Shown: piece after piece, positions 21,715-44,190 of the stretch
How positions within the stretch are numbered: position 1 is the first letter of the stretch
Layout: the number at the start of each line of letters is the position of its first letter
Source: Shigella phage Ag3
Length of the DNA: 64,000 nucleotides
Sequence record: FJ373894
Reading direction: 5' to 3' (one strand)
Made by a program: the position numbers and the translations under genes
Notes under the pieces: model-generated
Databases searched by the model: none
The model's input: the letters and a program-made list of their open reading frames with translations, nothing else
What the model was told of the DNA's origin: nothing

Positions 21715-22048
21715 TCTGGAGATCAGATACCGTAATCCGCAGAGTTCGCACGTCGTCGGACAGACTGCTGCTATTGAGTTTTAATTCAGCAACGTTCTGC
21801 TTGACGTAGTTGACGTCTGTGTTCAATACAGCGATCTTCTCACTCATATCGTTGACTTTGACAAGGATCTGGTCAACCTTGTTGGAATCCCGCTCAACCA
21901 CATCAAGACGGTTTTCGAACTTACCCATCATCCAAACAACCGAGCCAACAGAGACTATCGCCGCCGTCAGCACCCCGGTGAGGATCGCTTTCACATCGAT
22001 CACAGTGTTAGTTTGAGTTGTCATCTTGGCCTCCTGACGGGAGTTCAA
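21686..22048 (-). CDS. membrane-anchored coiled-coil protein
   Basis: ORF track; one hydrophobic segment then heptad-like region. Confidence 0.4.
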   Translation of the reverse strand: MNSRQEAKMTTQTNTVIDVKAILTGVLTAAIVSVGSVVWMMGKFENRLDVVERDSNKVDQILVKVNDMSEKIAVLNTDVNYVKQNVAELKLNSSSLSDDVRTLRITVSDLQSGKGNVNGR

Positions 22049-22256
22049 TCCCGAGGTGTTCCGCCATGAGTTGTACCGTCGCTGTCAGTTGATCGATCTG
22101 CGCTGCCTGCGCTGCAATAGTTCTGTCCTTTTCTTCCTGATTACGACGGGCGTTCAGAGCCGCTAAACCAGCAGCGCTGTCTGTGCAGATGATAGCCCCA
22201 GGGCAAGAGCTACTTCTCATCATCGATGCATGCCCCTGTACTTTTACACCACGCAT
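22008..22256 (-). CDS. hypothetical protein (82 aa)
   Basis: ORF track. Confidence 0.35.
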   Translation of the reverse strand: MRGVKVQGHASMMRSSSCPGAIICTDSAAGLAALNARRNQEEKDRTIAAQAAQIDQLTATVQLMAEHLGIELPSGGQDDNSN

Positions 22257-22306
22257 GATAATATCCTCTGTTAATGGCGGGGTTGCCCCCGCCTTGGTAA
22301 TACTAC

Positions 22307-25300
22307 TTATGCCAGAGCAATCAAACGGAAATCTTTGAATGATGGCGGCGCTGTACGGTTGCCTCTCACCAGCAGGCGGATCTTCAGGCCAACGAAAGGA
22401 TTGGTGCTGTCCACAGTCTTGTCATATTCGTATTCAAAGAATGTAGAACCGTCATTGACCAGAGGGGATGTTGGAGTCACAGTTTCCCATGCCACGTCAT
22501 CCATCTCCTGACCAGCGCGGAGCAGTTTCACCTGTACAGTCATTGAAGACTGAGAAGGTAGCATCGCACCGAAGTACTGTTTCAGAGTGGTGCAAGGGTT
22601 ATCGAATCCGATATCCTTGGTCACATAACTGAACACGTCTTCAAACGGATCCACCCCGTAGGTGTTGAAGATGATAGTGAAATCATCTCCATCAATCATC
22701 GGAGCCGTGTACACGTTGCTTTCGTTACGCGTCATTGTCGCCCGCACCTGGAAGTCACCCACTTGGCGATAGATGCCTTCCGTCGACAGAGACACGTCCG
22801 TATCGGATTCGAACTCAGCCCAATCAGAGAATGAGTTGGAGGTCGCATCGCGGTAACGGTATTCCAGTTTCAACACAGAACCTTCCAGGGCTGAATTGGT
22901 GACGCTTGCGTAGAACATGTCTACCAAGTAGTTGCCCAGGAAAGAAGCCTCTTCACCACCAATCTGCCCGTCGGAGTCGGCGTTGGAACTCAGAACAAAT
23001 TTGAACGTCGTGAACGTCGCGTCTGTCACAGTGTGTTGGGCGTTCAGTTGCTCAGGAGTGAAACCACAACCACCCGTCAGACCAGACAGGGTAACACTTT
23101 CACCCGCAGTCAGGCCATGCCCCGGCGCGTACACTGTAACAGTTGAAGAACCGTTGACACATTTCACGGTGTTCAGACCCAGAGGGCGGATCTTCGGACC
23201 GACTTTAGCATCGAAGGTCACGATGTTTGAACCAGCGGAGAAGTTACAGCGATACACACGGAACTTCATATCGGCAGTCTGGTTTGGAGTCCAAGTCGTG
23301 CCGTTGGAAGACGTGAAGAACACACCAGTGTACGGCTGCTTGGCGATGTACTCGTTGGTCAGCAAGTTCTTTTTGCCCATCTCTGCGATGTATGCGTTGT
23401 AGTCCTGAGTGTTGGCCAGGAGCACGATCGCGAACTCAGTCTGCGCCTGCAGATACACAGGATAATCAAACTTGAACATCGTTGGTACAGAAGAGTCTGT
23501 GGAGACGGAAACTTCTGATGGGTTCAAAGTCTTACGAGTGACCACAGTCGTCGCAGGCAGGCCATTACTCATCTCACGGATTTCCAGAGTAATCGGGATA
23601 TCACGGGACTTGGTGGAGAAGAAGACTTCAATCCCTTCGATGTACTCGCCACCAATATTGGTAGCAACCATGAAGGATTGAGCAATCGGGTCTTTCCACT
23701 TCGCAACTTCAACCGTCTCCGTTTTGTTTTCGGTGGACTTGGTCGCAGTGTAACCCAGGACGCGAGTGTTGACATAGGTCTTCTGAATGCCCTGTTTCTT
23801 ACCGAAGGATTTGTGAACCGCTTCAGCATTGGTCAGGGTATCGTCAGCAGACTTGCTGTCCACAGGACTATCAGTCAGACGGAAGACGTTGTCGCCCGTG
23901 TTGAACTTAACAGTCTCGTTCTGAGGAACTGCGAACACGCCTTTGATGTTGCCGTTGGCGTCAGTATTCAACGCACCACCCAGGGAGCCGCCGTTGGGTG
24001 TACAGTACGCGCTAACATCGCGTCCAGAGAAGAACGGATACACGCGAGTAAACGGACGCAGGCCTGTGGCTTCGAAGTTGATGTTCGTTTTGCGCATGTA
24101 TGGGATAACCTGCGTTTCAACGATCTGCTCGCCAGTCAGGGTAGTGGTCGTCTTGTCGGTGTACGTGTACGTGGTGACGTCACGGGTAGACACAGTCGTG
24201 CGGTAGCGGTAGCCCCACCATACACCGCCTGCGCCATGCGGTTCCCACACACGCTCAGACACGGAAACAGTACGCCATGTGCCATACACAGAACCTTCTT
24301 TGATCGCGCCGCGTGTGTTGATCGTTTCGTTGATCACACGTGGAGCAACATAGTAGTTCTCGAACCAGTAGTCGGTGGTCGGGTTCAGCTTCAGGAAACC
24401 TTCCCAGTTGAATACCGCATATGGGTTCACGTTGATGGTCGTGGTCGCATAATCCTGGCGCACAGAGATCTCACGGGTGTAGTTGCATACAACCATGCCA
24501 TCCTGAACGTTGTTCCAGCCCACTGGCGTCAGGTCAACCGCATTCTGCTGAACGAACGGGCGTAGGCGACCATTGTCAGTGTCGATTGAACCTACCCAGT
24601 CAGCAGACAAATCGTCGATCAGACGGAAGTCTTTGAACGGGTCGGCAGCGATACCGTTTTTGAAGCGCGGGTTGCCAGTGATCGGGTCGAACACCTGCTG
24701 AGTCATAGCTGAAGATTCCAGCTGTGACAGTGAGGTGTAGTATTCAACATTGGAGATACGGGTCTCCAGTTTACCGATATCACGCATCGTGTAACGACGG
24801 TTGTCGATGGTACGAATCTGAATATCGTCGATGTTGGCCGTGTAAGGCGGGATCATCAATTCGTACAGACGCATGCCGTTGTCTGGGATCGCAGGCGAAG
24901 CCAGGTTGTTGGAACTCACACCACGCGCAACGTTAAACACGCCGTTGTCGGCCAGATACACAGCATCAATACGAGGCAGATAGTACTCCGCATCGAGGAC
25001 GATAGCAGTGTTCGGGCGAACCATATCAGTGTCGGAAGCACCGCTGGTGATCTTAGGACGGAAGTCCAGGCAGTCTGCCAGGCCATACACAGTACCAGAA
25101 CTGGACGAAACATAGTTCGGAATGTCTGGGTAATCGATGGAAGAATAGGAATCCGCTGTGAAGAAATCACCAGAGCTGTGAGCGAAATACTGATACACCA
25201 CCGTGAACGTCCCTGAAATGGCTCCAGTGCCCGATAACAGGTTAGAACGATAGTATGCAGCATCACGCTGGCCGCCGTCCAGAGTGAAGTTAGAGGTGAC

Positions 25301-27145
25301 GTCAGCGCCACTTGCATTCTTCACGCTGACCAGCTTGTAGCCGTCGTGGTTGTTCAGCTGTACGCTGGCCGCCGAAGTGAACGTCACAGTCTCGGTGACT
25401 TCGGTAACAGTCTTGGTCTTGATCGTCGCTGTGGTGCGGACCATCAGTGCCAACAGGTTGATAGACTGGTTGGCGTACCCCGCACCCAGGGAAATCTGCA
25501 GTGCTGAACCGACCGGAGTACCAGTCAGGGACAGTCCCGAAGAGATATCAAACTGAGCTGCAGTGCCGTCTGCCTTCGCCGCTGAGTACAAAGAGAATTC
25601 AGGGCTGAAGCTGTAACCCAGAGGAGCAGAGATAGAGCCTGCGCCTGCCGCGTTCAACGTGATCTTGTTTGACCGCAGGACGGTGTAGTTGATGTCGATG
25701 GTCCCCGTAGGAGCCAGCGTCTTCACACCAAATACAGGCAGAGGGAAGATCAGGTCAATTGCTGAACTCTGGCTGAACTGATTAGACTCCAGTTCGCAAG
25801 AGAACATTGTTGTACCGCTTTCTTCGTATGCAACTTTGGTGACAGTACCCATGTCCCCAGTGACAACGAGGTCGCGCATATACAGACGGAATTCCGCTCC
25901 AGAACGTTCTGCTGAAATCAGGAGGGCAGTGGCCTGGACAGCGCTGGATGCGTTCAGGAACTTGTAACGGATTGTGCGAGAGACAACCGGAACCCCTTTG
26001 GAGTTCTTGGACACCAGATAGTTGCCAGTCGCAACAGCCACAGGGTTGTTGTTCAGGGTATCGGTGTCACGGGCTTTATCAATAGTGACCAGCTCTTCGC
26101 CGAGGTTTTCGATACGACGGCCACGAACGTAGGAGATCCCTGGCTTCATGACCGCCACGAATTTGCTTGCGTCACCACCTTCGGCCGGAGTGTACACGCC
26201 GCCGTTGTTGTTCTCTTTCAGATGTTCACGCAGGTCGATCTGGTGAGTAGAGACGTTGTAATCCCCGTTGGTCTCATAAGTGCGCTGCGCCATACTGTCT
26301 TCGAGGATGTTGTAGGTGGACTGGGTCACCATGGACTGAATGCGCCCGTCTTTGACTTTCGCCAGTTCAACGAAGTCGGCCACTTCTTCATCATAACCGT
26401 AGCGAGACAACACGAGGTCGATGCGCAGGCGATGCGCACCAGGGGCTTTGGAGTTCGGAGTACCCTGAGCATTGGAGAACAGACTTTCGTCTTCGGTTTC
26501 GGTGACGATGGTCTCTGTCACTTTGAATCCAACGCGGTGTGAGGTGGAGTTGGATGCGTTGTCGACGATCAGGGTAGCAGCCTCAACATCCAGGAACATG
26601 CCGCGGACGAAGTAAACGCCTTTGGTCATGCGCGCAACAATAGAGCCACCGACAGTAGCAGCCACACCATAGCCGACACGAATGAAATTATCGTTCACGT
26701 CGTAGGTGTTGAAGTACAGGTTGTCACCAGCTTCGAAACCGTCTGAACTACCACTCTCAGTCATCTCTAAGATGGCGTACATTGTATCCGGCTCAGCCAG
26801 GTAACGTTCCAGAGACAGGACGCGCGCTTTCGCATTGTTGTCCTTACCCAGAACATAGAGTTCGGAGATACCTTCCAGATCGGTGAACTCGCTACCACCA
26901 GCCAGAGTGAACTTCATGGACACTGCGGTGTTGGTGATTGTCAGGCCGCCGGGGATAACCATCGAACCGTCTTTGAACAGATGGTTCCCGAGTTTCTCCA
27001 GCTGATCCTGGAAGATGGTCTGCATCTGGTTCAGTTCACGCGTCTGAACTTTGATAGGAGCCGGACGGAACAGGATGCGTGAAAAACGCTTCTCTGGATT
27101 CCAATCATCCCAGTATGGGCGGCGGTTGAGGTTCATTTCTTGCAT
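22307..27145 (-). CDS. large virion structural protein (about 1612 aa)
   Basis: ORF track 22307..27283; ATG at 27145 with GGAG RBS; T/S/G/N-rich beta-type composition. Confidence 0.7.
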   Translation of the reverse strand: MQEMNLNRRPYWDDWNPEKRFSRILFRPAPIKVQTRELNQMQTIFQDQLEKLGNHLFKDGSMVIPGGLTITNTAVSMKFTLAGGSEFTDLEGISELYVLGKDNNAKARVLSLERYLAEPDTMYAILEMTESGSSDGFEAGDNLYFNTYDVNDNFIRVGYGVAATVGGSIVARMTKGVYFVRGMFLDVEAATLIVDNASNSTSHRVGFKVTETIVTETEDESLFSNAQGTPNSKAPGAHRLRIDLVLSRYGYDEEVADFVELAKVKDGRIQSMVTQSTYNILEDSMAQRTYETNGDYNVSTHQIDLREHLKENNNGGVYTPAEGGDASKFVAVMKPGISYVRGRRIENLGEELVTIDKARDTDTLNNNPVAVATGNYLVSKNSKGVPVVSRTIRYKFLNASSAVQATALLISAERSGAEFRLYMRDLVVTGDMGTVTKVAYEESGTTMFSCELESNQFSQSSAIDLIFPLPVFGVKTLAPTGTIDINYTVLRSNKITLNAAGAGSISAPLGYSFSPEFSLYSAAKADGTAAQFDISSGLSLTGTPVGSALQISLGAGYANQSINLLALMVRTTATIKTKTVTEVTETVTFTSAASVQLNNHDGYKLVSVKNASGADVTSNFTLDGGQRDAAYYRSNLLSGTGAISGTFTVVYQYFAHSSGDFFTADSYSSIDYPDIPNYVSSSSGTVYGLADCLDFRPKITSGASDTDMVRPNTAIVLDAEYYLPRIDAVYLADNGVFNVARGVSSNNLASPAIPDNGMRLYELMIPPYTANIDDIQIRTIDNRRYTMRDIGKLETRISNVEYYTSLSQLESSAMTQQVFDPITGNPRFKNGIAADPFKDFRLIDDLSADWVGSIDTDNGRLRPFVQQNAVDLTPVGWNNVQDGMVVCNYTREISVRQDYATTTINVNPYAVFNWEGFLKLNPTTDYWFENYYVAPRVINETINTRGAIKEGSVYGTWRTVSVSERVWEPHGAGGVWWGYRYRTTVSTRDVTTYTYTDKTTTTLTGEQIVETQVIPYMRKTNINFEATGLRPFTRVYPFFSGRDVSAYCTPNGGSLGGALNTDANGNIKGVFAVPQNETVKFNTGDNVFRLTDSPVDSKSADDTLTNAEAVHKSFGKKQGIQKTYVNTRVLGYTATKSTENKTETVEVAKWKDPIAQSFMVATNIGGEYIEGIEVFFSTKSRDIPITLEIREMSNGLPATTVVTRKTLNPSEVSVSTDSSVPTMFKFDYPVYLQAQTEFAIVLLANTQDYNAYIAEMGKKNLLTNEYIAKQPYTGVFFTSSNGTTWTPNQTADMKFRVYRCNFSAGSNIVTFDAKVGPKIRPLGLNTVKCVNGSSTVTVYAPGHGLTAGESVTLSGLTGGCGFTPEQLNAQHTVTDATFTTFKFVLSSNADSDGQIGGEEASFLGNYLVDMFYASVTNSALEGSVLKLEYRYRDATSNSFSDWAEFESDTDVSLSTEGIYRQVGDFQVRATMTRNESNVYTAPMIDGDDFTIIFNTYGVDPFEDVFSYVTKDIGFDNPCTTLKQYFGAMLPSQSSMTVQVKLLRAGQEMDDVAWETVTPTSPLVNDGSTFFEYEYDKTVDSTNPFVGLKIRLLVRGNRTAPPSFKDFRLIALA

Positions 27146-27175
27146 TTTGATGCTCCATCGATAGGTGCCATTATA

Positions 27176-27191
27176 GAGATATTTAGTATAC
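27176..27191 (-). promoter_or_regulatory. late-promoter-like ACTAAATATCTC upstream of giant structural gene
   Basis: About 35 nt upstream of ATG 27145. Confidence 0.3.
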
Positions 27192-27203
27192 AGCCAACCG
27201 AGG

Positions 27204-27236
27204 AATAGAAAGAAAAAGCCCCTCATCTGAGGGGCT
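27204..27236 (-). terminator. rho-independent terminator after tailspike A
   Basis: Minus-strand AGCCCCTCAGATGAGGGGCT followed by TTTTTCTTTC. Confidence 0.65.
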
Positions 27237-27243
27237 TTGTCTA

Positions 27244-29028
27244 TCAAGCGGAAGCATTCCATTGACCAGCATTGATCACCCATGTGCTCGTTACTTTTGA
27301 ATACACCATTTTCACGAGATTCATTTTCGTGGTGGCGGTGTTGGCACCAGTCACATCGACAGGGACACCCGCTATGCTCAATGAAGCAATGTTTGAACCT
27401 CTCAGTAAAAACGTCAGCTCCATACCATCATATGGCGTACCGGTAAATGCGATGTTGGAACCAGAAGAAACGTTTCTTCGATAGCACCCATAACCGCTGT
27501 TTATGTCGACAGAGTCAGTTGTGAGCTGTAATGGCAATTTTCCACGACTTAATTTACATGCCGTTACAACGCCGAGATCATCAATGCCTCGACTTGCGCC
27601 CCAACGTGCGATGTTGACTATGTGGCCAGTCACACCAGCGTCTTGCGCACCACCAATGTCGAAGAAACCTCCAGCCCTTGTTCCCCATATCGGCTCATCA
27701 ATTAAGCTGTTGGTGGAGTTGGTTATACTATACCCATGCGCGAGGGTTCCTTGGCTTGGGGAAGAGTGTGTACAATCTCGGAATGTGGCATCTTGAGAAC
27801 CACTGATGCGGACATCAGAGATACTATTGTTCTCATAATACATTCCATACACCTTAGTTCCCTTGGCCTGATCCAAGAATCCATATTTCGTGGTATTCTG
27901 GCTGAATCCGTTAACAAAACAGACTGCTTCTGTAGGGAATGTTGTGGTATAATCCCAAGAAGTCCCGCCGTCGGTGGAGTGTCTTACGATAATACCATAA
28001 TCCGGCATATCCACTTCCGGAGCACCAGAATAACCATCAAACCCTGTTATAACGATAGCATTGGCTCCGTTCTGTACTATTAACCGACTCGAACCAGCCC
28101 CACCACCGATAACCTCACAACCGTCTATCTTCAATCCATAACACAAAGTCCCTATCTCTATCCCGATATTATTAATGGCTGTGCCCATGTCCACCCACAT
28201 CATATCTAGATGACCATGGTTCCTCCAATATTTGGCTCTGAAAGCGACGCAACCCGTTTTACCATTCAACGATATCCTGATATTGTGTAATTTGCAGTTT
28301 CTCACTGCATTCCCACCAGAACGAGAAGGATCAATCGTGAGTACACCAACGTTGTTTTCACCAGCCAAGAATAATGCGCCGGAATGTGCATAAATTTCAG
28401 AGTTAGGATAAAACGCCAACGCCTGGCCAGTTACCGTATAGTTGCCAGGAAGAAACTGGAATGTCCCACCCTGGGATAATTTAGTTTGTATAAGAGACTG
28501 AGACATCGAAGGGTCGATAACAGTTAGACGATAAAACCCAGAGTATAACTCATCTCTTAATGCATCTGGATCCAATTTCACCCAGTTAGAACTTGACAAT
28601 CCACCAGTATTGGCAATGGTGCCACCAGCGTTTACAGATTTGGGTAAAGTCCCACCCCAACGGTAAAGACTTGTACCATCAGAAACGACTTCATTTCTTA
28701 CACGTATCGTGAACCCCGAATCGAAGTTTTCGACCAAAGTTACAAATTCCTTCCGAAGTACTGCAAGAACCCCCAGGTCTACGGTGCCCGTATTGTGTAC
28801 GAGAATGCCGTCTGCCATGCTGGTGATGGTAGCGCCAGCAGGCAGGTTAGAAGGCAGAGCATAGGAGCGCTGGGGCACCTTGTCGTAGATCACCTTATAA
28901 CCAGTCAGGGTGGATCCTGGTTTAGCATACAGAACCTCGGACTTCTTGCACCCGAACTTGCGTGCAATAGAGTCCTTGTTGGTCTCTTTCGAGACCGTAC
29001 CTTTCGGCTGTGAAAATTGCGGATTCAT
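27244..29028 (-). CDS. tailspike protein A (594 aa)
   Basis: N-terminus MNPQFSQPKG shared with 31692..33713; Gly/Asn/Thr-rich beta-helix-like repeats. Confidence 0.7.
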   Translation of the reverse strand: MNPQFSQPKGTVSKETNKDSIARKFGCKKSEVLYAKPGSTLTGYKVIYDKVPQRSYALPSNLPAGATITSMADGILVHNTGTVDLGVLAVLRKEFVTLVENFDSGFTIRVRNEVVSDGTSLYRWGGTLPKSVNAGGTIANTGGLSSSNWVKLDPDALRDELYSGFYRLTVIDPSMSQSLIQTKLSQGGTFQFLPGNYTVTGQALAFYPNSEIYAHSGALFLAGENNVGVLTIDPSRSGGNAVRNCKLHNIRISLNGKTGCVAFRAKYWRNHGHLDMMWVDMGTAINNIGIEIGTLCYGLKIDGCEVIGGGAGSSRLIVQNGANAIVITGFDGYSGAPEVDMPDYGIIVRHSTDGGTSWDYTTTFPTEAVCFVNGFSQNTTKYGFLDQAKGTKVYGMYYENNSISDVRISGSQDATFRDCTHSSPSQGTLAHGYSITNSTNSLIDEPIWGTRAGGFFDIGGAQDAGVTGHIVNIARWGASRGIDDLGVVTACKLSRGKLPLQLTTDSVDINSGYGCYRRNVSSGSNIAFTGTPYDGMELTFLLRGSNIASLSIAGVPVDVTGANTATTKMNLVKMVYSKVTSTWVINAGQWNASA

Positions 29029-29198
29029 AAGAATCTCCTGTTGTTTATTCTCGATGGTATGCGCAACGGCTTATTTAGTTGTCGGCGAGTCCAGGTATGC
29101 CGCCACCGAATATGTTGCTGGTGAACGCGCAACTGGATTGGCTTATCGAACAGACTGGAACAAAGCGCGTTATCAGGTCTGACATGGACGAATGCGAC

Positions 29199-29223
29199 TG
29201 AAGAAAAGGTCCCTTTCGGGACC
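29199..29223 (-). terminator. rho-independent terminator after tailspike B
   Basis: Minus-strand GGTCCCGAAAGGGACC followed by TTTTCTTC. Confidence 0.65.
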
Positions 29224-29229
29224 TTGACT

Positions 29230-31506
29230 TTAGTTCTGAATCAACACGGCATTGTACGATAGTGGAAAATCACCAGAAGTTCCTGAACGGGTAAACTGGT
29301 AGTTAGACCCAGAAACACCAGCAGCGACAGACGCCAACTGACTCGCTGAAGTGGCTGTCACCGCAATGCTACGGCCAGATACCAGGCTAACTATACCGAC
29401 AGCGGCAGTAACGGACCCAACGCCATTCGGGATAGTAACTAACCCGACTTGCTTGTCCGGGTGTGTCGGGGAGTCATAATGGTAGAACTTACACGAAGCT
29501 CCACCCACAAAAACCTGCCCGTAAAAGTAACAATTTTTTGTTGTTACGCTAGAGCCACCAGTTTGGTTATCTAAAACAGTAATTCCCAGTGGCTTATTTG
29601 CCAGGAATGTACAATTTTCCGCAGTTACTCCAACTACAGAGTTCACTAAAAGGTCTCCCTGCTGTGCTGCATCAATGTCATTGTTCTGGAAAAGGCAATT
29701 CACAAGCTTTGGTCTTGCCGGTACTAGGCCACCTTCTTTAATAATCTCAAGACCAAAGTAACGGCTGTCAGAGAATTTAACACCTGTAGCCATAAACTCA
29801 TTACAAGAACCCTGAATTACCACACAAGATTTATTACCGCTGCGGTTGCTGCTGTAATACCCGTTTGTTAATTGTAAATACTGAGTATTAGTCGCTCTCA
29901 GTGCAATACCGGTGGCAAGGTCTGACATGACGTCAGTCAGCCATATCCACCGGCAGTTAACTATCTCTATAGCTGCGGTGCCTAAAGTGTTATCACCACA
30001 GGCGTAGAATCTATCGCCTAGCAGCTCAATACCCTCTATGTTCGTGCTCACATGAGAGCTGTTTTCGGTTATGAACAGCCCGCATTTACACCCATTGAAT
30101 GTATTCTGGTTAAATCGAGTGTTAATCTGTCCCCCACCAAGTACAACACCGTATGTACTGGCAGCGAATCTGTTGAACCTGAAATCAAGCTCTCCAGCCC
30201 CATAACCGCCGGGTGCATCTACGCAATATTTAAGGAAGGCAAAAGAACAATTTTCAACTGTAACCAAAGGCGCTTCGATTCGTATACCAGTTGATGTGGA
30301 TTCTACGGTAACTGACTGAATCGTAAAGTCCGCAAGTCTTGCAAATTCATGAGTAACCTTGAAACATGTATCTCCGTCATTTTCAGGGCAGAATGTCGTG
30401 TTGAGCTTGCCCGCTCCGATAAGATTGGCGGGGCTATCAATAACAATATCTTTTACGAAATATTTCTCCGTTGCCGCCGGGACAAATACTGTATTAGACG
30501 CTGTAGAGGCGAGCTTAGCTGCGGCCAATGCGGCATTGATGGCCTGTGACCATGTATTAGACCCAGTTTTATAGTCGGCGGCATTGAAATAGACGGCATG
30601 GCGGGCGTTAATTATAGCCTGCTCTACAGTAACACCAGAAGAAGTCCCGACTAACGTAGCCCCGGAGCTTGCCGCTAAATCGTTTCTTAAATTTGGGTCC
30701 GTTTGTGGAGTCCAGTCGGCAACAGCAACAGGGTTGGTACTTGCTGCGATTACATGCGGCAATGCACCACTCCAGGAATACCAGGTCTTACTTACCGGGT
30801 CATATACCACTTTGTCACGGTCATTAATTGTTAAAGTGCCGCCTACGCTAAAAGTTAAACCAGAGTCAGCGTAGCCATTTTCAATAGCCCAGTTGAGTTT
30901 TAACTTGATCAAATCATCACCAACAGAGTCTAAACTCTGTTGCACCGTTTGCCCCGACGTAGTTCCAACAAGGCTTGCCCCATTATCAGAAGCCAACGCC
31001 AGGTAATTTTGTTTTACGGACATTTCTGACACGACCCAAACTCCAGCCGCAGGCGAACCTGTGAGGAAACTCACAACTCCTGTTGTGCTGTTGTAGCTGT
31101 AGTTGACACCAGGAACCTGGAACTTCCCGTCAACATACAGAGACTGTACGCCGTAGGTTGTGAAGTCTGGCGTGAAAGTAGTCTCGTTACCGTCCGCCTG
31201 AAACTTGTAGATTCTGATCCCGTTTTCATAATCTTCTGGGGACAGGATCTTGTCAAACAGACAGTACACTACATCATCAGCCTCTAGTGCTCGACCGAGG
31301 TTGACTGTGTTGCCATCGATTTCATAGTTGTCGACAGGAACCTGAACACCACCATTGATAGTGATGAAGCCCGTAACGGGATAGAACGGGAGGGAGATAA
31401 ACGTCTCTCCACCCGTTGCGGTATAAGTGTATGGAATCTGGTGTGGTGCTGTTACAACCGCTCCAAAGATGCTCTCGACGTTTCTGGTCATTTGAAGATA
31501 CCCCAT
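29230..31506 (-). CDS. tailspike protein B (758 aa)
   Basis: Beta-helix-like repeats (NCSFAF, NCTFLANK); alternative start 31491. Confidence 0.65.
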   Translation of the reverse strand: MGYLQMTRNVESIFGAVVTAPHQIPYTYTATGGETFISLPFYPVTGFITINGGVQVPVDNYEIDGNTVNLGRALEADDVVYCLFDKILSPEDYENGIRIYKFQADGNETTFTPDFTTYGVQSLYVDGKFQVPGVNYSYNSTTGVVSFLTGSPAAGVWVVSEMSVKQNYLALASDNGASLVGTTSGQTVQQSLDSVGDDLIKLKLNWAIENGYADSGLTFSVGGTLTINDRDKVVYDPVSKTWYSWSGALPHVIAASTNPVAVADWTPQTDPNLRNDLAASSGATLVGTSSGVTVEQAIINARHAVYFNAADYKTGSNTWSQAINAALAAAKLASTASNTVFVPAATEKYFVKDIVIDSPANLIGAGKLNTTFCPENDGDTCFKVTHEFARLADFTIQSVTVESTSTGIRIEAPLVTVENCSFAFLKYCVDAPGGYGAGELDFRFNRFAASTYGVVLGGGQINTRFNQNTFNGCKCGLFITENSSHVSTNIEGIELLGDRFYACGDNTLGTAAIEIVNCRWIWLTDVMSDLATGIALRATNTQYLQLTNGYYSSNRSGNKSCVVIQGSCNEFMATGVKFSDSRYFGLEIIKEGGLVPARPKLVNCLFQNNDIDAAQQGDLLVNSVVGVTAENCTFLANKPLGITVLDNQTGGSSVTTKNCYFYGQVFVGGASCKFYHYDSPTHPDKQVGLVTIPNGVGSVTAAVGIVSLVSGRSIAVTATSASQLASVAAGVSGSNYQFTRSGTSGDFPLSYNAVLIQN

Positions 31507-31519
31507 AGAGGATTTGCCA

Positions 31520-31534
31520 ATATGGGGTATTTAG
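31520..31534 (-). promoter_or_regulatory. late-promoter-like CTAAATACCCCATAT upstream of tailspike B
   Basis: Identical 15-mer to 1967..1981. Confidence 0.4.
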
Positions 31535-31691
31535 CGAATGGATAAGAAGTCGCAGGACTACCCACTTGTTTTATCTGATTACGAATTTACCCAGGCTGAT
31601 ATCGTTAATCAGCGTAGCCACTATGTTTGCCAGTTGGGTGGTTGTTAACGTGTTCACATCACCACGCAATTGCTGGCTACAACAATGATTG

Positions 31692-33713
31692 TTAGCTTAG
31701 ATTTAGACTAAACCCACCATTTGACTTGCTTATCATACCACGAACAGTTTTGTTGCCTCCACCGCTGTATTCGTCATATTGCATTTTGACATTTACAGCG
31801 ATGTTGGCGTCAATTGAATCCCATCCAGCAAAGTTCAGGAACACATTTCCGCTAGTGTCTACTGATATTGTTGGCGTGGCTGCTGTTCCTTTTGTGAACG
31901 TACTTTGCACTGAACCTTCCATTGTGCTTGCTGCTGGAGTTGTACCCATCACTAATGTTCCCTGCAATCGCCCATGCCATGCGCTAGAAACACCTGAAAC
32001 CGGGGAGTTGGCTACAACATCAACCGTCCACAAACTTACGTTTCGGTACGTACTCACAGTGCCAATTTTAAAATTCCTGGAATCTCCAGCGGCTTTAATG
32101 AACAGCATTGAACCCGTAGCGCATTTACTTGAATCAGGCGCTGCACCTGCAGATGCAAAATCAGAGAATGTGCAATTATCAAATTTTACTTTGCTGTAAT
32201 CGGTAGCTGTTAACTTAGCTTCTGGTGCATTAACATTTTCGAATTTAACTCCGCCATAGTTCGCCACTGCGCCTGTAAGCTGATTGGTATTGACATATAC
32301 ATCACCACCATTCAGCTTTCGGACCACCAGGTCACGACAGATAAATCCATTAATAGAATCGCCTGACGTCCAGTTATCGTTGGTGTTGAAGTTAAAGAAC
32401 CATGCATGGTTACCAGAGTCTCCGCCGCCAAGTTCTATGCGTCCGGTGATCACAATATTTGAATAACCATAGCCACGCGGGTTATTATCTGCTACAGACT
32501 CGTCAATCAGCTTTGTTGTGCCAATAACACTTCCCCAATTCCCCCCGACGACATCATAATTGATGGTTATGTTACGCATCAGCCCGGCAATCATCGTCTC
32601 TGTTATGGTGCTGTCCCAACCCCAATCCAGCCATATTGGTGCTACGCGGTACGGAAGCGTGTAACGCCCTGTGCTACGATATTTGTAATTGACTGTAAGA
32701 TTAGATATTTGATTATCCATGTTACCGTTATAGAAATACATTTTGATTGGCGTACCCTGTTGAGTATCAATGGCATCAACAGTTATCTGGCCACCACCAC
32801 AATTGTTCGTCAGAAAGAAATCACGACGGCAACCATTATTAACTGTATGGATGTCAACTACACCAACATTACCAAGGAGATGTGGATAGCGAGTGTCATT
32901 GTTCACACTGCGAGCAAAGAGATTTTTTACATTAGTACATTCGTAGCCTTGATAGCACTTGTTAGTCTTGCCAATAAATGTGAAATTATTGCATCCATTC
33001 AGGCGCAGTGGGGTTAGTCCGCGTTTGTCATCACCGACATACTCAAGGGTGGAAGAAGCATCCACTTCAAACACCAGATTGGTGATATTCGTCAGGTCGA
33101 ACACGCGCGTCAGGTCAAATGCACCGGAGTAAAGCAGGGTGTCCCTGATAACCAGTCCGCGAATTTCAAGGCAGTCCATATTACTTAAAGTAAAGATGGT
33201 ACTAAGACCGCCACTACCAGGACCAAAGTTCACAACCTGGTCAAAAATAATTTCAACACTTTTTAGGTTGTTAGATGTGATGTAAGACTGCAAAGATTGC
33301 AGTGTACCGAATCGGGAGAAGTAAAGGACACGTTTGTTTACAACTGAATCAAGAGCATCTTTTACTGTAGATGATTCGTATCCGACAAGACTTGCCTTTT
33401 CACCCGTCAGCAGTTCAGAACCCAGCGTTTTGCTTTCAACGCTAACCCATGCTGAAGATGATACACCACCAGTTGATTGTGGTGTTGAGTTTTTGTTCAC
33501 AGTTTTGGGCAAAGACCCACCCCAGGTATAACACTGGGCACCATTGATATGCCACACGGCGTCGGTTGCAGTCGTCACAGTAGCACCGTCTTCAAAACTA
33601 CCTTCGACCAAATTAAGACCTAAATCCGACAAAGCCCGCCGCCACAATTCACGCGGGTTTTTGTTGATTTCTTTGGCTGTTGAACCTTTCGGCTGATTGA
33701 ATTGCGGATTCAT
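31692..33713 (-). CDS. tailspike protein C (673 aa)
   Basis: N-terminal module shared with 27244..29028 (MNPQFNQPKG, WGGSLPK, TGGVSSS); beta-helix-like repeats. Confidence 0.7.
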   Translation of the reverse strand: MNPQFNQPKGSTAKEINKNPRELWRRALSDLGLNLVEGSFEDGATVTTATDAVWHINGAQCYTWGGSLPKTVNKNSTPQSTGGVSSSAWVSVESKTLGSELLTGEKASLVGYESSTVKDALDSVVNKRVLYFSRFGTLQSLQSYITSNNLKSVEIIFDQVVNFGPGSGGLSTIFTLSNMDCLEIRGLVIRDTLLYSGAFDLTRVFDLTNITNLVFEVDASSTLEYVGDDKRGLTPLRLNGCNNFTFIGKTNKCYQGYECTNVKNLFARSVNNDTRYPHLLGNVGVVDIHTVNNGCRRDFFLTNNCGGGQITVDAIDTQQGTPIKMYFYNGNMDNQISNLTVNYKYRSTGRYTLPYRVAPIWLDWGWDSTITETMIAGLMRNITINYDVVGGNWGSVIGTTKLIDESVADNNPRGYGYSNIVITGRIELGGGDSGNHAWFFNFNTNDNWTSGDSINGFICRDLVVRKLNGGDVYVNTNQLTGAVANYGGVKFENVNAPEAKLTATDYSKVKFDNCTFSDFASAGAAPDSSKCATGSMLFIKAAGDSRNFKIGTVSTYRNVSLWTVDVVANSPVSGVSSAWHGRLQGTLVMGTTPAASTMEGSVQSTFTKGTAATPTISVDTSGNVFLNFAGWDSIDANIAVNVKMQYDEYSGGGNKTVRGMISKSNGGFSLNLS

Positions 33714-33759
33714 GTGAATCTCCTGTTGTTCTCATGAAGCCCCGAAGGGGCTTTATCAA

Positions 33760-36700
33760 TTAGAAGTTGCGAGACATCTCGAACCATATACCAGCTCGGC
33801 GCTGGAGAGTCATGATAGCCAAGCCACCGGAAGCCGTGGCGTTCACCCCACCTTTGAGGCGCATCACAGTACTATTGTGAGTGAGGACAACCCCATCACC
33901 CATACGCAGGTTGATAATATCACCCGATTGTGCACCAGTGAAGTCGGTGATGGTTCCTGAAGCGATATACAGATTCGGACCAAACACCGCAGATGGGGTG
34001 CCACCCGACACCGTCACTTCACCTTTCGGATCATCAAGAGCAGTGACGTCTCTTATCACGTTGAAAGCGCCGCGCCCACGGCTAAGATAATACTTGCTGG
34101 TAGTAGCCCCGCGAGCAGCAATGTTGGTCAGGGAACCATCAGTCATCAGGGTTCCGGCGTCGTATGCATAAACAACATGCGGACGAGACGTGACCGAGTT
34201 AATGACTTCGTCATGGATGTTGACGTTGTACATTGCTTTGTTATTGGTGGCGGCCAGATAGATAGCGCAAGATCCCGCTCCATACGCGTTACCGCCGATA
34301 TTGATGTTGCCTGTGTCGCCAGCGATAGGAGTGGTGTTCGGGTTACGGGAACTACTGTAGATCGCCAGAGGATAGTCTGCGGTCAACACCCAATCAGATT
34401 CCACGGCGATGCTCGCCAAGGAACCAGCAAACAAGCCGTTGGCATTGACAGACACGTTGGTGACGCCAGCGCCCATGTAAACGCTGTATTTCCAGTCGCC
34501 GAGGATTGTATTCCCACTGACGGTACATTGGTCAACGCCCTTGTAAAGCTGGATCGCTGCGTCATCTGATGGAGATACAGCCGCTGTCGAAGTCTGGATA
34601 TGGTTACCAGAGATATTGATCCAACGACACCCCCAAGCGACGTTGACGCCAGAACTACCACCATCAATCAGAAGGTTGCCAACGACATTTACTCGCTGGC
34701 AGTTTGGACTGAGGTTGATGTTTCGGTGGGTGTTCCCTATGATGTGGTTCTTCGTAATCAGTGTGCGGAACAGACCCAGCCCCTGAACACCATGGGTGCC
34801 CCCAGAAATGAAGTTTCCTTCAATGATGGTATCGCGCAACGTGATCGTAGACGGGAACAACGGAACCCCAGCATTGGTGTCTAGGCCACCATACAGAGAT
34901 GTGATCTGCCCGATCATCCCGATGCCACAAATCGCATAGTTGCCTGTGCCCGCCCAAGGATCGGTTGGCATCTCAATGACGTTTTCGCTGATTTTGTTGT
35001 TGATGTTCATGGAAGTCGTGCTGGTCGTACCGATACGGATACCGTATGCCTCGCCAGTCCCATCCAGACCATAAACATAGTTCTTTTCAATAGTCGCACG
35101 GATAACGCCGGAAACGATGATACCCTTCCTGGTGTTGTTGTTGCCATTTAGGATACAGTTTCTGATTTGTAAATCGGTGTGCCCAGTATCAACAAAGGAG
35201 TAGAGCAGTGTGTCTGTGTTGGCAACGATACACTTCAGCTTCAGACCATCGATAACTTTGACACCAACTGTCACCAGAACACGGCCTACACCATAAACCT
35301 TTTCTGTACCGCGGACGATAACTCCTGGATGGCTCGCGGCATAATCAACAGCACCCTGAACAGCCAGAGTGAAATCTGTGTTTTCATCGACGTACTCACC
35401 AGCCGTAACCAGATGAGAGAATTGCTCTGGCGTGACATAGTATTGCATTTCGGCCAAAGTGCCCTGGGGTGTTACAACGACAGCGTTTGCACCCACCAGA
35501 CCTGTATTCCCGGCCAGCAACTCGCCTTTGTACGCTTCAAGGGCGTCTTTACTGCCAGGGGCTGGTAAGAGTGGCACCACAACGTTGCCAGGAGCGTAGG
35601 ACAAGTTGCTTCCGCTCACAGATACGATGGACGCGCCTGTTGGGATACCAGAAGGCAGACCCCAGATCTTCTGTGCAACGACATCATAGATAACCGTCTT
35701 TCCGTCCAGTTTGGTGATGGTATCGGACGACAAAATAACCTGAGAATTCGGTACGTTCACGGAACGTGCCACTTCGTTTGGTGTACGGTCGATCTGATTG
35801 TACAGGGTTGGGTCACCATTGATGACGACAACAACTTCATCACCAGCTTCGAGTTCGTCGGCCAGCGTGATGATCTTCGTAACGGAGTCATAAGTGAAGC
35901 CCAGGCCTTTCTGCTGGCGGGATCCATCGATAAAGATCTCAGAAACATCTTCGGCATCGACATCCAACTCGATCTCAGTTTCACCACCCACAGCTGATCC
36001 GCTATTGTATATCCAAGTGATAACCGTACCGCCGCCGGAACCACCGGAGCCATCGCCCAACTGGATCGGGACATATTGGATGACCTGCAGCTCGGAACCT
36101 GATGGGATTGATGGACTGAAGTCGACATTGAAACCATTGAGGGAATACTTTGACTCCAGCAGGCGCTTCCCGTCAACATACACATCAACAATGGACGGCT
36201 GTGTGGTGAGAGTTACCTGAGCTGTATCTGATGCAACTGTCTCAGTGAAGATGGTACGACTGTAAACGCGCCCCTGGCCAAGACCGACGCCAGCAGTCAC
36301 AATCCAACCACGCGCGTCTCCAGACCAGGTAAAGGTCGCAGACACGCTATCGGTGGAGAGAGTCATAGGCTCTACAGAGCCGTACATTGGGTGACCATTT
36401 GGGTCAATGGTCAGAGGATACAGGGAGAACTTTCCATACAAGTCACAGACTGTAACAGAATCGCCAATGCGCGTAGGGGAAGGGAACACCACCGTAGAGA
36501 CGCCTGTGGAGTTGTCTACCAGATAGCCTCGCCCTTCAGTGAGCGTTGCCGTAGAGGCATGCGGAAGGGCTTCCCAGCGGATACCACCGCCACCCAGCGG
36601 CAACCATCCACCATTTTCGTAGAAGCCCTCAAATTCGTCGGAGTCGGCATTGTAGCGAACAGAAGACGGGAGGCCTGCGCTGGCATTACCCTCGGGTAAA

Positions 36701-36819
36701 GTCAGGACAGCATCTGGTCCATGCTCAATCGTACCCGTGTTGAGGATACCAGCCAAAGTAGACTGTTCTTCAGCCACCAGACCGAGAGGGAAAACAGGCT
36801 GTGTTGGTTTATTAGCCAT
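33760..36819 (-). CDS. tailspike protein D (about 1019 aa, TSP4-like)
   Basis: ORF track 33760..36849; ATG at 36819 with GGGG RBS; long N-terminal domain plus C-terminal repeats. Confidence 0.7.
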   Translation of the reverse strand: MANKPTQPVFPLGLVAEEQSTLAGILNTGTIEHGPDAVLTLPEGNASAGLPSSVRYNADSDEFEGFYENGGWLPLGGGGIRWEALPHASTATLTEGRGYLVDNSTGVSTVVFPSPTRIGDSVTVCDLYGKFSLYPLTIDPNGHPMYGSVEPMTLSTDSVSATFTWSGDARGWIVTAGVGLGQGRVYSRTIFTETVASDTAQVTLTTQPSIVDVYVDGKRLLESKYSLNGFNVDFSPSIPSGSELQVIQYVPIQLGDGSGGSGGGTVITWIYNSGSAVGGETEIELDVDAEDVSEIFIDGSRQQKGLGFTYDSVTKIITLADELEAGDEVVVVINGDPTLYNQIDRTPNEVARSVNVPNSQVILSSDTITKLDGKTVIYDVVAQKIWGLPSGIPTGASIVSVSGSNLSYAPGNVVVPLLPAPGSKDALEAYKGELLAGNTGLVGANAVVVTPQGTLAEMQYYVTPEQFSHLVTAGEYVDENTDFTLAVQGAVDYAASHPGVIVRGTEKVYGVGRVLVTVGVKVIDGLKLKCIVANTDTLLYSFVDTGHTDLQIRNCILNGNNNTRKGIIVSGVIRATIEKNYVYGLDGTGEAYGIRIGTTSTTSMNINNKISENVIEMPTDPWAGTGNYAICGIGMIGQITSLYGGLDTNAGVPLFPSTITLRDTIIEGNFISGGTHGVQGLGLFRTLITKNHIIGNTHRNINLSPNCQRVNVVGNLLIDGGSSGVNVAWGCRWINISGNHIQTSTAAVSPSDDAAIQLYKGVDQCTVSGNTILGDWKYSVYMGAGVTNVSVNANGLFAGSLASIAVESDWVLTADYPLAIYSSSRNPNTTPIAGDTGNINIGGNAYGAGSCAIYLAATNNKAMYNVNIHDEVINSVTSRPHVVYAYDAGTLMTDGSLTNIAARGATTSKYYLSRGRGAFNVIRDVTALDDPKGEVTVSGGTPSAVFGPNLYIASGTITDFTGAQSGDIINLRMGDGVVLTHNSTVMRLKGGVNATASGGLAIMTLQRRAGIWFEMSRNF

Positions 36820-36822
36820 TTC

Positions 36823-36863
36823 AAATACCCCTAAATGTGTTCGTTTCATCTAGGGGTATTTAG
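36823..36863 (-). promoter_or_regulatory. CTAAATACCCCTAG motif plus inverted repeat upstream of tailspike D
   Basis: Arms AAATACCCCTA / TAGGGGTATTT; downstream arm supplies GGGG RBS. Confidence 0.4.
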
Positions 36864-38083: not shown

Positions 38084-38085
38084 TT

Positions 38086-38940
38086 TTAACTCCTTGAACT
38101 TTCCAGGAATACGGTAAACCCAGCAGGATGGAAATGCTGACGGAAGACGCGCTCAAACACACCTTCAAAATCAGATACGTCGCCAGGAACTCTTATCACA
38201 TACGTGAATTCATCATAGTAGTAATCGTCACGCATTCCTGTCGCGCCGTCACATTCAAAGTTATCGTCCAAACCACCAATTTCTTCCTTGGGATAGTACA
38301 CACTCACTGGGCAACCAAAGTAAATCCAGAAGAACAATTCAATCGCTTTCTTCGTCCCGCGAATGCGATAAATGTGTTTAAGCAACTTCAACCAGCGGAC
38401 ATGGTCCAGCGTTCGACGTTTGGTTCCCTCGACATACACAGAGAGCGTGTCTCCGTCTGAAGTCACCAAACTGTCCGAACCAACTGGCACAAACTTCCCG
38501 AACTCCAGGAAGGTCTTATCAACCGTTCTCTGGAATCCGAAATCAGCATACCAATCGTCGATGCGTTCGTTCTTGTCTTCCATTGAGATTAATGGCCGAC
38601 CGTCTACATCCAGCAAATTTTCGAAGTCTAGCGCCATCATGTTCTCAAACGTGCGCGTCAGGAACTTGTCTTCCAAGAAGTCCTTGGCCTCGGTCCCTGG
38701 TGTCTTGCGCTTCTTGATGTCAATCAGCTGCTCAATAGGAGATTGATCCGTATTTGGGTTCACCCAACCATCAGTGTCTGCCAGATACGCCAAGATCTCC
38801 TCTTCGGTGAATCCCTGCTGGCGATACAGCCAGTTGAAGAACGTGTCCATGAACTCGATGAACACTGGGAATTCATTCTGGTAGAACAATGGGGTTTCAT
38901 ATTTCACCCCATTGTGTCCGTTATTGAGATCTTTGGACAT
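38086..38940 (-). CDS. virion/baseplate-associated protein (284 aa)
   Basis: ORF track; overlaps upstream gene by 20 nt. Confidence 0.45.
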   Translation of the reverse strand: MSKDLNNGHNGVKYETPLFYQNEFPVFIEFMDTFFNWLYRQQGFTEEEILAYLADTDGWVNPNTDQSPIEQLIDIKKRKTPGTEAKDFLEDKFLTRTFENMMALDFENLLDVDGRPLISMEDKNERIDDWYADFGFQRTVDKTFLEFGKFVPVGSDSLVTSDGDTLSVYVEGTKRRTLDHVRWLKLLKHIYRIRGTKKAIELFFWIYFGCPVSVYYPKEEIGGLDDNFECDGATGMRDDYYYDEFTYVIRVPGDVSDFEGVFERVFRQHFHPAGFTVFLESSRS

Positions 38941-40702: not shown

Positions 40703-40740
40703 GTTTATCTCCATCACCTGAACTTGAATATGGTGTTGAA

Positions 40741-44189: not shown

Positions 44190-44190
44190 A

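Follow-up and report, generated by a model that had tools for sequence, protein, structure and literature searches.

The giant open reading frame beside the neck genes of Shigella phage Ag3 is the conserved gene vriC, and its product is probably a tripod-type baseplate protein

Introduction

What is encoded by a frame of 1612 codons that lies between the tail spikes and the neck genes of Shigella phage Ag3? The frame was found in a stretch of 64,000 nucleotides of this phage (FJ373894), which as a whole is called the window here. A preliminary description had presented it as a giant structural gene with no evident T4 counterpart. It is the already known, named and family-wide gene vriC/VrlC (DUF4815), here in an Ackermannviridae phage of the Agtrevirus type, and it is a conserved marker that flanks the Ackermannviridae tail-spike cluster, with the baseplate wedge genes on the cluster's other side. 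Its product, VriC, belongs to a family of abundant virion proteins and is a full-length homologue of the tripod protein gp119 of phage 812 and of gp106 of phage A511. We estimate a probability of about 70% that it also works as a trimeric tripod at the baseplate periphery.

Results

Gene model and upstream signals

In the program-made list of open reading frames, the vriC frame is on the minus strand and is open from 22307 to 27283. Translation most sensibly begins at the ATG at 27145, from which 1612 codons and a stop follow, because GGAG stands 7 nt 5' of it, the upstream tail-spike ORF terminates at 27244, a hairpin and a promoter-like site are present upstream, and the counterpart CDS in Salmonella phage SKML-39 (4839 nt) has exactly this length. 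The extent given in the preliminary description was thus confirmed. A start at 27283, the longest ORF, was rejected, as it crosses the stop of the upstream gene, the terminator hairpin and the promoter-like site, and relatives begin at the equivalent of ATG 27145. By our own arithmetic, the chance of a 1612-codon open frame in DNA of ~50% GC is ~(61/64)^1612, or ~1e-34. The gene and its signals are as follows.

22307..27145, minus strand: vriC/VrlC-family gene for a probable DUF4815 baseplate "tripod"-type virion protein (ORF, Pfam DUF4815, SKML-39 CDS, PDB 9euf_0)
27153..27156, minus strand: ribosome-binding site GGAG, 7 nt before ATG 27145 (sequence inspection)
27170..27197, minus strand: putative sigma-70-like promoter upstream of vriC, TTGGCT-16-TATAAT, 10/12 (consensus scan, a pattern match alone)
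27215..27238, minus strand: intrinsic-terminator-like hairpin (10 pairs, 6 GC) with a T-run, 3' of the last tail-spike gene (sequence)

Family membership and conservation

VriC matches Pfam PF16075 (DUF4815) in three stretches, scoring 205.1 bits (E 2.1e-60) where the cutoff is 30, as well as PHROGs 358 and 877, and all listed homologues have PF16075. It is 99.8% identical to the equally long product AFU64346.1 of SKML-39 (Agtrevirus), and proteins of the same 1612 aa with 96–99.8% identity occur in phages from Salmonella, Shigella, E. coli, Enterobacter and Dickeya, under the names VriC, virulence-associated protein or unknown structural protein. Further away, ~100 metagenomic and phage homologues (31–40% identity, 1564–2077 aa) have a collinear, gap-poor architecture of ~1600 aa. 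This collinearity in distant phages, together with the full-length alignment of a shorter homologue in phage 812, runs against the earlier suggestion of a fusion of baseplate and fibre functions. An assembly or frameshift artefact that merged separate genes had also been a worry, and nothing but the unusual length of the ORF speaks for it. We reject it as of negligible probability, since 394 phage records span at least 80% of vriC, hundreds of independent genomes share the same ORF, the SKML-39 CDS has identical length, and the collinear homologues include the same gene in the distant Delftia phage PhiW-14. A reading of DUF4815 as a glycosidase was discarded separately; the one published mention of a "DUF4815 enzyme" is a misprint of DUF4185.

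Close relatives are nearly gap-free, with at most 6% gaps per 50-residue window, and the homologue alignment contained no hypervariable segment along VriC, its conservation being even over the whole length in contrast to the mosaic tail-spike cluster beside the gene. At the extreme N-terminus, the motif PY.D.[FW]...K.F..ILFRP...VQ.RELNQ.Q is present as RRPYWDDWNPEKRFSRILFRPAPIKVQTRELNQMQ, which aligns with residues 3–69 of the 812 protein and with the family consensus and includes the invariant P10, Q34, R36, E37 and Q42; the family consensus C-terminus ...KDFRxIALA is present at the other end. Since VriC hardly varies between phages of different host genera, it is very unlikely to determine host range.

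Within the Ackermannviridae (SKML-39, Shigella phage MK-13, Dickeya phage LIMEstone1 and Sajous1, where it is gp140), it is the same gene at the same site, with the tail-spike cluster on one side and the neck genes on the other, and with nothing material different. VrlC-type proteins of other large myoviruses (T4-like cyanophages, the rhizobiophages PhiM9 and PhiM12, PhiW-14, Ralstonia phage RSP15 and Vibrio phages) share the ~1600-aa architecture at 31–40% identity and, like VriC, are abundant virion proteins, whereas their sequences are divergent and the adjoining host-recognition cassettes differ from those of the window. For virion association we draw on the literature, which supports the earlier view of a virion structural gene: gp140 gave 311 spectra and ranked among the top five proteins of the CsCl-purified kuttervirus Sajous1 (PMC10892097), VrlC is one of the abundant proteins of the PhiM12 proteome, and immunolocalisation placed the homologue of A511 at the baseplate (PMC4621102).

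Gene neighbourhood

The order of genes around vriC was taken from Pfam, PHROG and PDB matches.

22008..22256, minus strand: gene for a small 82-aa virion structural protein, immediately 3' of vriC (PHROG 4322 at 8.5e-44)
27244..36849, minus strand: four tail-spike genes (594, 758, 673 and 1029 aa), immediately 5' of vriC (PHROG tail-spike families)
36872..40717, minus strand: three baseplate genes, encoding a gp6-like protein (598 aa), a PF23786 wedge subunit (284 aa) and a 403-aa protein (Pfam, PHROG)

Downstream of vriC on the minus strand come two small genes, for 82 and 120 aa, and then gp13-, gp14- and gp15-like genes, followed by TerS, TerL, sheath, tube and portal, so that the gene does lie just upstream of the neck genes, as first described. 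The order of gp6-like gene, PF23786 wedge, 403-aa protein, four tail spikes (TSPs) and vriC agrees with the published Ackermannviridae vriC locus. The baseplate genes matched Pfam Gp6-like and Baseplate_wedge (494 bits) and PHROGs 219, 3465 and 3838, and in the PDB the sequences of the 284-aa and 403-aa proteins found only spurious ubiquitin and haemagglutinin matches. All three are candidate docking partners for VriC. The 1029-aa tail spike bears the anchor/assembly N-terminus of CBA120 TSP4 (PDB 7rej/7rfo TSP4-N, E ~1e-151), and the tail-spike set as a whole differs from that of every collection phage, the best DNA match covering 72% of the 20-kb region. Conserved synteny reaches beyond the family, as PhiW-14 keeps the gp6-like gene, wedge, host-recognition cassette, DUF4815 gene, small gene and gp13/14/15; the small gene after the DUF4815 gene encodes 67 aa there and 52 aa in a Kayvirus.

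T4 carries gp11-gp12-wac before gp13–gp15. The map position noted earlier, that of the T4 fibritin/short-fibre/baseplate block, is indeed occupied by vriC, between the gp6-like/wedge/tail-spike block and the gp13/14/15-like genes, and this position, from wedge/gp10-type genes to gp13–gp15, is all that it shares with T4 gp11, gp12 and wac. No T4 protein was among the sequence and fold matches of VriC in Pfam, PDB, profile and Foldseek searches, and VrlC is absent from T4 and its nearest relatives (PMC4621102), so the impression that there is no evident T4 counterpart holds.

Relationship to the tripod of phage 812

The sole PDB relative of VriC is a 1152-aa DUF4815 chain in baseplate entries of phage 812 (9euf_0, E 5e-53; profile search, E 2.8e-120), and four collinear blocks with ~26–30% identity cover chain residues 3–1130. 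The Kayvirus orthologue was matched by BLASTP at 5e-46. Judging by gene order, we assign this chain to the tripod protein gp119, because the Kayvirus order (wedge, arm scaffold, 173-aa arm segment, DUF4815 in fourth place, small gene, RBP1, coupler, RBP2) agrees with the published gp116–gp123 order of phage 812 (PMC13433997). Tripod structures are available as PDB 9EUF, 9EUI, 9EUJ, 9EUK, 9TIC and others (EMBO J 2026, PMC13433997), and known gp119 homologues are gp106 of Listeria phage A511 and Gp176 and Gp120 of the Bacillus phages Deep-Blue and Vp4. The published tripod has three "spine helices", a flap/fiber region and CBM/lectin-like base, fin and leg domains, and it re-orients towards the cell with a conformational change. 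It docks on loops of the arm scaffold gp117, borne on dimers of the arm segment gp118, and the C-terminal sandwiches of the 812, A511 and Deep-Blue homologues have been proposed to bind the cell wall.

Both proteins share the N-terminal DUF4815 region with its conserved motif and three spine helices, beyond which come C-terminal sandwiches of the CBM/lectin-like type, they align over the whole chain, and both genes have a small gene immediately downstream. VriC is 460 aa longer, with insertions at aa ~72–202, 381–676 and 1309–1452 that form three beta-domain blocks. The phages that carry it infect Gram-negative hosts, unlike the Gram-positive-infecting 812, and vriC adjoins gp10-type tail spikes and T4-type neck genes, whereas the 812 tripod gene adjoins RBP1/RBP2.

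A tblastn search of the 64-kb window with Kayvirus gp117 and gp118 gave no credible match, although it was insensitive and also missed the gp6-like wedge. BLASTP of the Kayvirus proteins against the 284-aa and 403-aa baseplate proteins yielded one marginal match and no other, between the N-terminus of the arm scaffold gp117 and the 284-aa PF23786 wedge protein (E 0.018). With homologues of the 812 docking partners undetected in the window, the attachment of VriC may differ.

Domain map and predicted structure

AlphaFold (AF2) models were made of the monomer, with the two halves predicted separately from alignments of 47 sequences. They are almost entirely beta except for three helices (aa 32–56, 279–290 and 787–815), which fits the earlier remark on a beta-type protein rich in T, S, G and N (10.2%, 8.1%, 7.6% and 6.3%, respectively; 32% in sum). 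No further long helix interrupts the beta structure, and the number agrees with the three spine helices of the published tripod. The resulting map of VriC is as follows.

24356..27145, minus strand: DUF4815 region, aa 1–930, with three predicted "spine"-type helices between beta domains (Pfam, AF2 pLDDT 79, Foldseek)
25118..26005, minus strand: largest insertion relative to the 812/Kayvirus tripod, aa ~381–676, ~215 extra residues (alignment gaps)
23249..24121, minus strand: two predicted beta-sandwich, carbohydrate-binding-module-like domains, aa ~1009–1299 (AF2, Foldseek)
22883..23155, minus strand: possible small "phage spike trimer"-like beta domain, aa ~1331–1421 (Pfam Phage_spike_2 and profile match, weak)
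22310..22789, minus strand: C-terminal beta-sandwich region, aa 1453–1612 (alignment to 812 residues ~1007–1135, pLDDT ~90)

Structure prediction had been suggested as a check in the preliminary description, and in Foldseek both modelled halves matched the 812 tripod chain first. For the N-terminal half, the best matches were the tripod chains 9eui_Q (5e-22), 9euj_G and 9euf_0 with probability 1.0, while global superposition on the tripod was poor (TM 0.19), which leaves the relative placement of the domains unconfirmed. For the C-terminal half, 9euf_0 was best (E 3.3e-23, TMq 0.52, probability 1.0), and the CBM22 tandem 4xup (probability 0.93–1.0) and endosialidases were also found. The best Pfam DUF4815 stretch joins aa 581–930 to profile positions 275–566, and the largest insertion (aa ~381–676) is predicted as confident beta-sandwich domains with pLDDT of ~90 or higher. 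The most conserved C-terminal block is aa ~1009–1299, which aligns to 812 residues ~680–949 and carries the motif DPIAQSF ... KQPY.GV.F.S.N..TW; its fold resemblance would make carbohydrate binding a candidate role of these domains. Residues ~1331–1421 fall within an insertion of ~90 aa relative to the 812 tripod, and their matches are weak, with Phage_spike_2 at 0.0013 (below the cutoff) and the phi92 endosialidase 4hiz at E 0.0016. Low-confidence linkers occupy aa 826–1005 and 1126–1152, and the low pLDDT of helix 787–815 and of the long hairpins is compatible with, though no proof of, a need for partner chains.

The Pfam scan of VriC returned DUF4815 and Phage_spike_2 and no others. It contained no LysM family up to an E of 0.1, and likewise none in the Kayvirus orthologue, so that this result does not discriminate between the two; the "hook" of 812 was called LysM-like, with proposed peptidoglycan binding, through sequence similarity alone (PMC13433997). 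Neither a right-handed beta-helix catalytic domain nor any other glycanase domain was found in VriC with Pfam and PHROGs, the fold matches being beta-sandwich, CBM and tripod proteins.

Discussion

The above analyses suggest that VriC is most likely a trimeric protein of the baseplate periphery and a candidate for the "prongs" seen by electron microscopy, a hypothesis already raised in a review of the Ackermannviridae (PMC11721090). Our searches of the PDB and the literature found neither an Ackermannviridae baseplate structure nor an experiment that places VriC in the virion, and we infer its trimeric state, prong location, conformational switch and ligand. The results above do show that the gene is intact, which family it belongs to, and how its fold, conservation and synteny compare with those of its relatives. 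By homology with 812, VriC would form homotrimers held by the three spine helices, which would dock via the N-terminal DUF4815 part onto a peripheral baseplate protein, with the carbohydrate-binding-like beta-sandwich domains of the C-terminus facing the cell; such trimers would be the best candidate for the "prong-like" structures beneath the Ackermannviridae baseplate. The branched tail-spike complex would first bind and cleave O-antigen or capsule, after which the VriC trimers may re-orient or refold, touch some conserved component of the envelope and fix the baseplate in the post-contraction state. Tentatively, and at a little short of even odds, we propose that the trimer is the Ackermannviridae prong and a host-independent second-stage sensor, a refolding tripod of the Herelleviridae type whose three extra domains would adapt it to the Gram-negative outer membrane and which would dock on another partner, be it the PF23786 wedge, the 403-aa protein or the TSP4 anchor.

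Conservation across host genera, the lack of a variable region and abundance in virions would fit a purely architectural VriC, which spaces or scaffolds the tail-spike complex and neither binds the cell surface nor acts in triggering. We consider this unlikely, given that the CBM-like sandwiches of the C-terminal half resemble those of the 812, A511 and Deep-Blue homologues with their proposed cell-wall binding, that 812 tripods turn towards the cell, and that the TSP complex is thought to be anchored to the baseplate by the N-terminal domain of TSP4 and not by VriC. The same conservation makes a role of VriC in host range, as a host-specific tail fibre for receptor binding, improbable, as 96–99.8% identity across phages of five host genera and the absence of a hypervariable segment stand against it, and host specificity in the Ackermannviridae maps to the four mosaic TSPs.

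An enzyme or true virulence factor, for example a depolymerase, might be read from the name "virulence-associated protein", which was inherited via database annotation, and from the weak similarity of aa 1331–1421 to a non-catalytic endosialidase domain. That similarity spans just ~70 residues at E ~1e-3, searches of Pfam and PHROGs revealed no catalytic family in VriC, and the best fold matches are a structural baseplate protein and CBMs, which together render such a function very improbable. Equally small is the probability that VriC belongs to the neck, collar or whiskers, as a fibritin analogue, or decorates the head. The gene does sit where T4 has wac, but whole-length homology to a protein whose structure is known from the 812 baseplate, the baseplate localisation of the A511 homologue (PMC4621102) and AF2 models without a long fibritin-type coiled coil oppose a neck location, and the decoration protein considered in the preliminary description found no support.

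The flagged "giant ORF" is thereby settled as a conserved vriC marker gene, an ordinary and known feature of these genomes. Its product is among the most abundant virion proteins in a phage family that is used for biocontrol and therapy, and the tripod structure published for phage 812 in 2026 offers a template for it. With its three insertions, uniform conservation and no LysM family found, the domain map makes the prong hypothesis concretely testable. If the trimer is in addition the refolding second-stage sensor proposed above, the tripod would be a pan-myovirus triggering module and not a speciality of the Herelleviridae.

The giant gene and its surroundings

A single unbroken reading frame runs from 27283 to 22307 on the minus strand, a length that simple arithmetic rules out as chance in DNA of ~50% GC. 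From the ATG at 27145, which has GGAG located 7 nt 5' of it, the gene comprises 1612 codons plus stop, exactly the extent (22307-27145, about 1612 codons) assigned in the preliminary description. The longest-ORF start was rejected, as its 46 added codons cross hairpin and promoter-like signals and fall outside the gene.

Features around the giant gene, in minus-strand order
38921..40717, minus: gp6-like wedge protein, first in the order
38086..38940, minus: PF23786 'baseplate wedge subunit' (284 aa), after the gp6-like gene
36872..38083, minus: 403-aa protein, phrog_3838, between the wedge gene and the TSP4-type tail-spike protein gene
36849..27244, minus: four tail-spike genes, between the 403-aa gene and the giant gene
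27244, minus: end of the upstream tail-spike ORF (ORF listing)
27238..27215, minus: GC-rich hairpin of 10 bp with T-run, between the tail-spike gene and vriC
27197..27170, minus: TTGGCT-16-TATAAT match, near-consensus sigma-70-type promoter, directly after the terminator-like hairpin
22307..27145, minus: giant gene (vriC)
22008-22256, minus: 82-aa 'virion structural protein' (phrog_4322), between vriC and the gp13-like gene
21686-22048, minus: 120-aa protein with weak, coiled-coil-type Pfam matches, between vriC and the gp13-like gene
minus, after the two small genes: gp13-like, gp14-like and gp15-like neck and tail-terminator genes
minus, after the gp15-like gene: small and large terminase, sheath, tube and portal

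The giant gene thus sits at the map position where T4 holds gp11, gp12 and wac, as had been proposed, and the earlier view that it has no T4 counterpart was right. The order of hairpin then promoter match (27170-27238, minus) suggests that vriC may have transcription separate from the tail-spike cassette; the intergenic gap here is ~100 nt, versus ~430 nt for its counterpart in SKML-39 (Salmonella phage, Agtrevirus).

The first tail-spike gene encodes the N-terminal anchor/assembly domains of CBA120 TSP4 (PDB 7REJ, E ~1e-151). The neighbouring 403-aa protein carries repeated 'KVNTSTYN(A/S)KM(T/S)SLD'-like motifs and a sub-threshold match to BppL_N (lower baseplate protein N-terminal); it may be an adaptor or a fibre, and the tail spikes or VriC might dock with it. 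Small genes also lie 3' of DUF4815 in PhiW-14 (67 aa) and in a Kayvirus (52 aa), and a putative chaperone has been reported at this position in A511 and Deep-Blue (PMC11406892). On the opposite strand, a 70-aa gene (20704-20916, plus; phrog_4466, E 5e-35) lies between the gp13-like and gp14-like genes, and this antisense CDS is annotated in SKML-39 too. A four-tRNA cluster (43682-45006, plus: Ser-TGA, Asn-GTT, Tyr-GTA, Ser-GCT) occupies a region otherwise devoid of long ORFs, the same count as the 'four tRNA genes' reported in the related phage PhiSboM-AG3.

Family identity and conservation

The product matches DUF4815 (Pfam) with 205 bits against a cutoff of 30 and is assigned to PHROG 358/877; every feature tested agrees with placing it in the DUF4815/VrlC family and its gene at the Ackermannviridae vriC locus. 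The gene had been taken as unrecognised, but it is named vriC/VrlC in GenBank, where orthologues appear as 'VriC', 'virulence-associated protein', 'putative VrlC protein', 'unknown structural protein' or 'hypothetical protein', and in the Ackermannviridae literature, where vriC is a conserved marker beside the tail-spike cluster (PMC8432352; PMC11721090; PMC10791037). Gene, name, conservation and resemblance to A511 and 812 baseplate proteins are therefore already known. The 'virulence' label seems to have been carried over from database names, and no enzymatic or toxin family was detected in the protein by Pfam or PHROGs.

The possibility that the frame is an assembly artefact, or a fusion of baseplate and fibre functions, was refuted on several grounds. 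The SKML-39 CDS is exactly equal in length and its product 99.8% identical; homologues occur in 1695 phage records, 394 of which cover at least 80% of the query. A large protein collection yielded 547 matches, and about 100 of the best 120 were full-length (1564-2077 aa, only 31-40% identity), the full-length ones including proteins from Ralstonia phage RSP15, Delftia phage PhiW-14 and a Vibrio phage. In the full-length alignment the 24 closest relatives are essentially gap-free (no 50-residue window exceeds 6%); distant relatives are mostly collinear and rich in gaps only at aa ~951-1000 and ~1101-1150. PhiW-14 also shares the module order: gp6-like, wedge, variable cassette, DUF4815, small gene, gp13, gp14, gp15, terminases, sheath, tube, portal.

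VriC is 96-99.8% identical across phages isolated on Salmonella, Shigella, E. coli, Enterobacter and Dickeya, and no hypervariable segment was seen in the full-length alignment. Conservation extends to the baseplate genes as well as vriC on either side of the tail-spike cluster (27244-36849, minus), but the cluster itself is mosaic. Together, these sequence patterns argue against a part for VriC in determining host range; any ligand it has would be a conserved envelope feature. In the best-matching genome, that of Shigella phage MK-13 (97% identity), the match extends over only 72% of positions 20000-40000, and this tail-spike combination may be absent from the phage collection.

Homology to the phage 812 tripod

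The only sequence relative in the PDB was the 1152-aa 'DUF4815 domain-containing protein' of Staphylococcus phage 812 baseplate entries (E 5e-53; E 2.8e-120 in a profile search with 47 sequences). The gene order in a Kayvirus (wedge, ~1200-aa, 173-aa, DUF4815, small gene, 634-aa, 121-aa and 457-aa genes) reproduces the published 812 order of wedge gp116, arm scaffold gp117, arm segment gp118, tripod gp119, RBP1 gp121, coupler gp122 and RBP2 gp123 (PMC13433997), and the PDB chain was on this basis identified as the tripod, gp119. VriC is homologous to it at both sequence and fold level. Pairwise comparison with the 812 tripod and with its Kayvirus orthologue showed that VriC has ~455 residues more, mostly in three places.

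Pairwise alignment of VriC with the 812/Kayvirus tripod
Shared block: VriC aa 4-71, tripod aa 3-69
Insertion: VriC aa 72-202
Shared block: VriC aa 203-380, tripod aa 104-281
Insertion: VriC aa 381-676, confidently predicted beta-sandwich domains
Shared block: VriC aa 677/712-1308, tripod aa 364/393-955
Insertion: VriC aa 1309-1452, including a weak 'Phage_spike_2'/phi92-endosialidase-like domain of ~70 residues
Shared block: VriC aa 1453-1592, tripod aa 1007-1135

Structure was modelled in two parts, aa 1-940 and 900-1612 (mean pLDDT 79 and 80), each from a 47-sequence alignment. The models are almost entirely beta and T+S+G+N make up 32% of the protein, in agreement with the beta-type, T/S/G/N-rich composition noted from sequence. 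In Foldseek searches of the PDB, tripod chains ranked top for the N-half (E 5e-22); the low global TM is unsurprising, since the model is a monomer and the protein has several domains and insertions. The C-half best matched the pre-contraction chain 9euf_0 (E 3.3e-23, TMq 0.52, 740 columns), followed by tandem CBM22 modules (probability ~1) and, more weakly, endosialidase non-catalytic regions. The model contains exactly three substantial helices (aa 32-56, 279-290 and 787-815), which agrees with the three 'spine helices' of the published 812 tripod. The C-half monomer AlphaFold model (22310-24448, minus) fitted post-contraction tripod chains with a TMq of only 0.21; this preference for the pre-contraction state may be mere model bias, but it is consistent with a protein whose domains can be arranged in two ways.

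No LysM family was found by Pfam in VriC, nor in the Kayvirus orthologue, and its absence is hence uninformative. Homologues of the Kayvirus arm scaffold and arm segment were not detectable in the window by tblastn; the 284-aa wedge protein showed marginal resemblance to the arm-scaffold N-terminus (E 0.018).

Proposed role in the virion

The VriC orthologue is among the top five proteins (311 spectra) of CsCl-purified kuttervirus virions (PMC10892097), and VrlC is abundant in the PhiM12 proteome (PMC4621102). The earlier assignment as a structural protein was right. The earlier suggestion of a decoration protein does not hold, since its relatives are baseplate proteins of A511 and 812. Listeria phage A511 gp106 was immunolocalised to the baseplate, and the protein correlates with double-layered baseplates (PMC4621102). 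Homologues in A511, Deep-Blue and Vp4 form pyramidal structures with C-terminal CBM folds, for which cell-wall contact has been proposed (PMC11406892). The baseplate arms of 812 carry twelve docked tripod trimers, which rotate and refold during contraction; their CBM/lectin-like domains then point towards the cell, and contacts from tripod to tripod lock the baseplate in its contracted form (PMC13433997). An Ackermannviridae review already proposes VriC as the unexplained 'prong-like structures' under the baseplate (PMC11721090).

By analogy with 812, we consider it fairly likely (roughly 70%) that VriC forms trimers at the baseplate periphery, probably as the prongs, and stabilises the contracted state. 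The trimer would be held by the spine helices and docked via its DUF4815 part; tail-spike engagement and baseplate rearrangement would then carry the C-terminal sandwich domains to the cell surface, where VriC would stabilise the committed, contracted state. The 812 template makes the composition of the prongs, and the ligand of VriC in Gram-negative hosts, testable questions.
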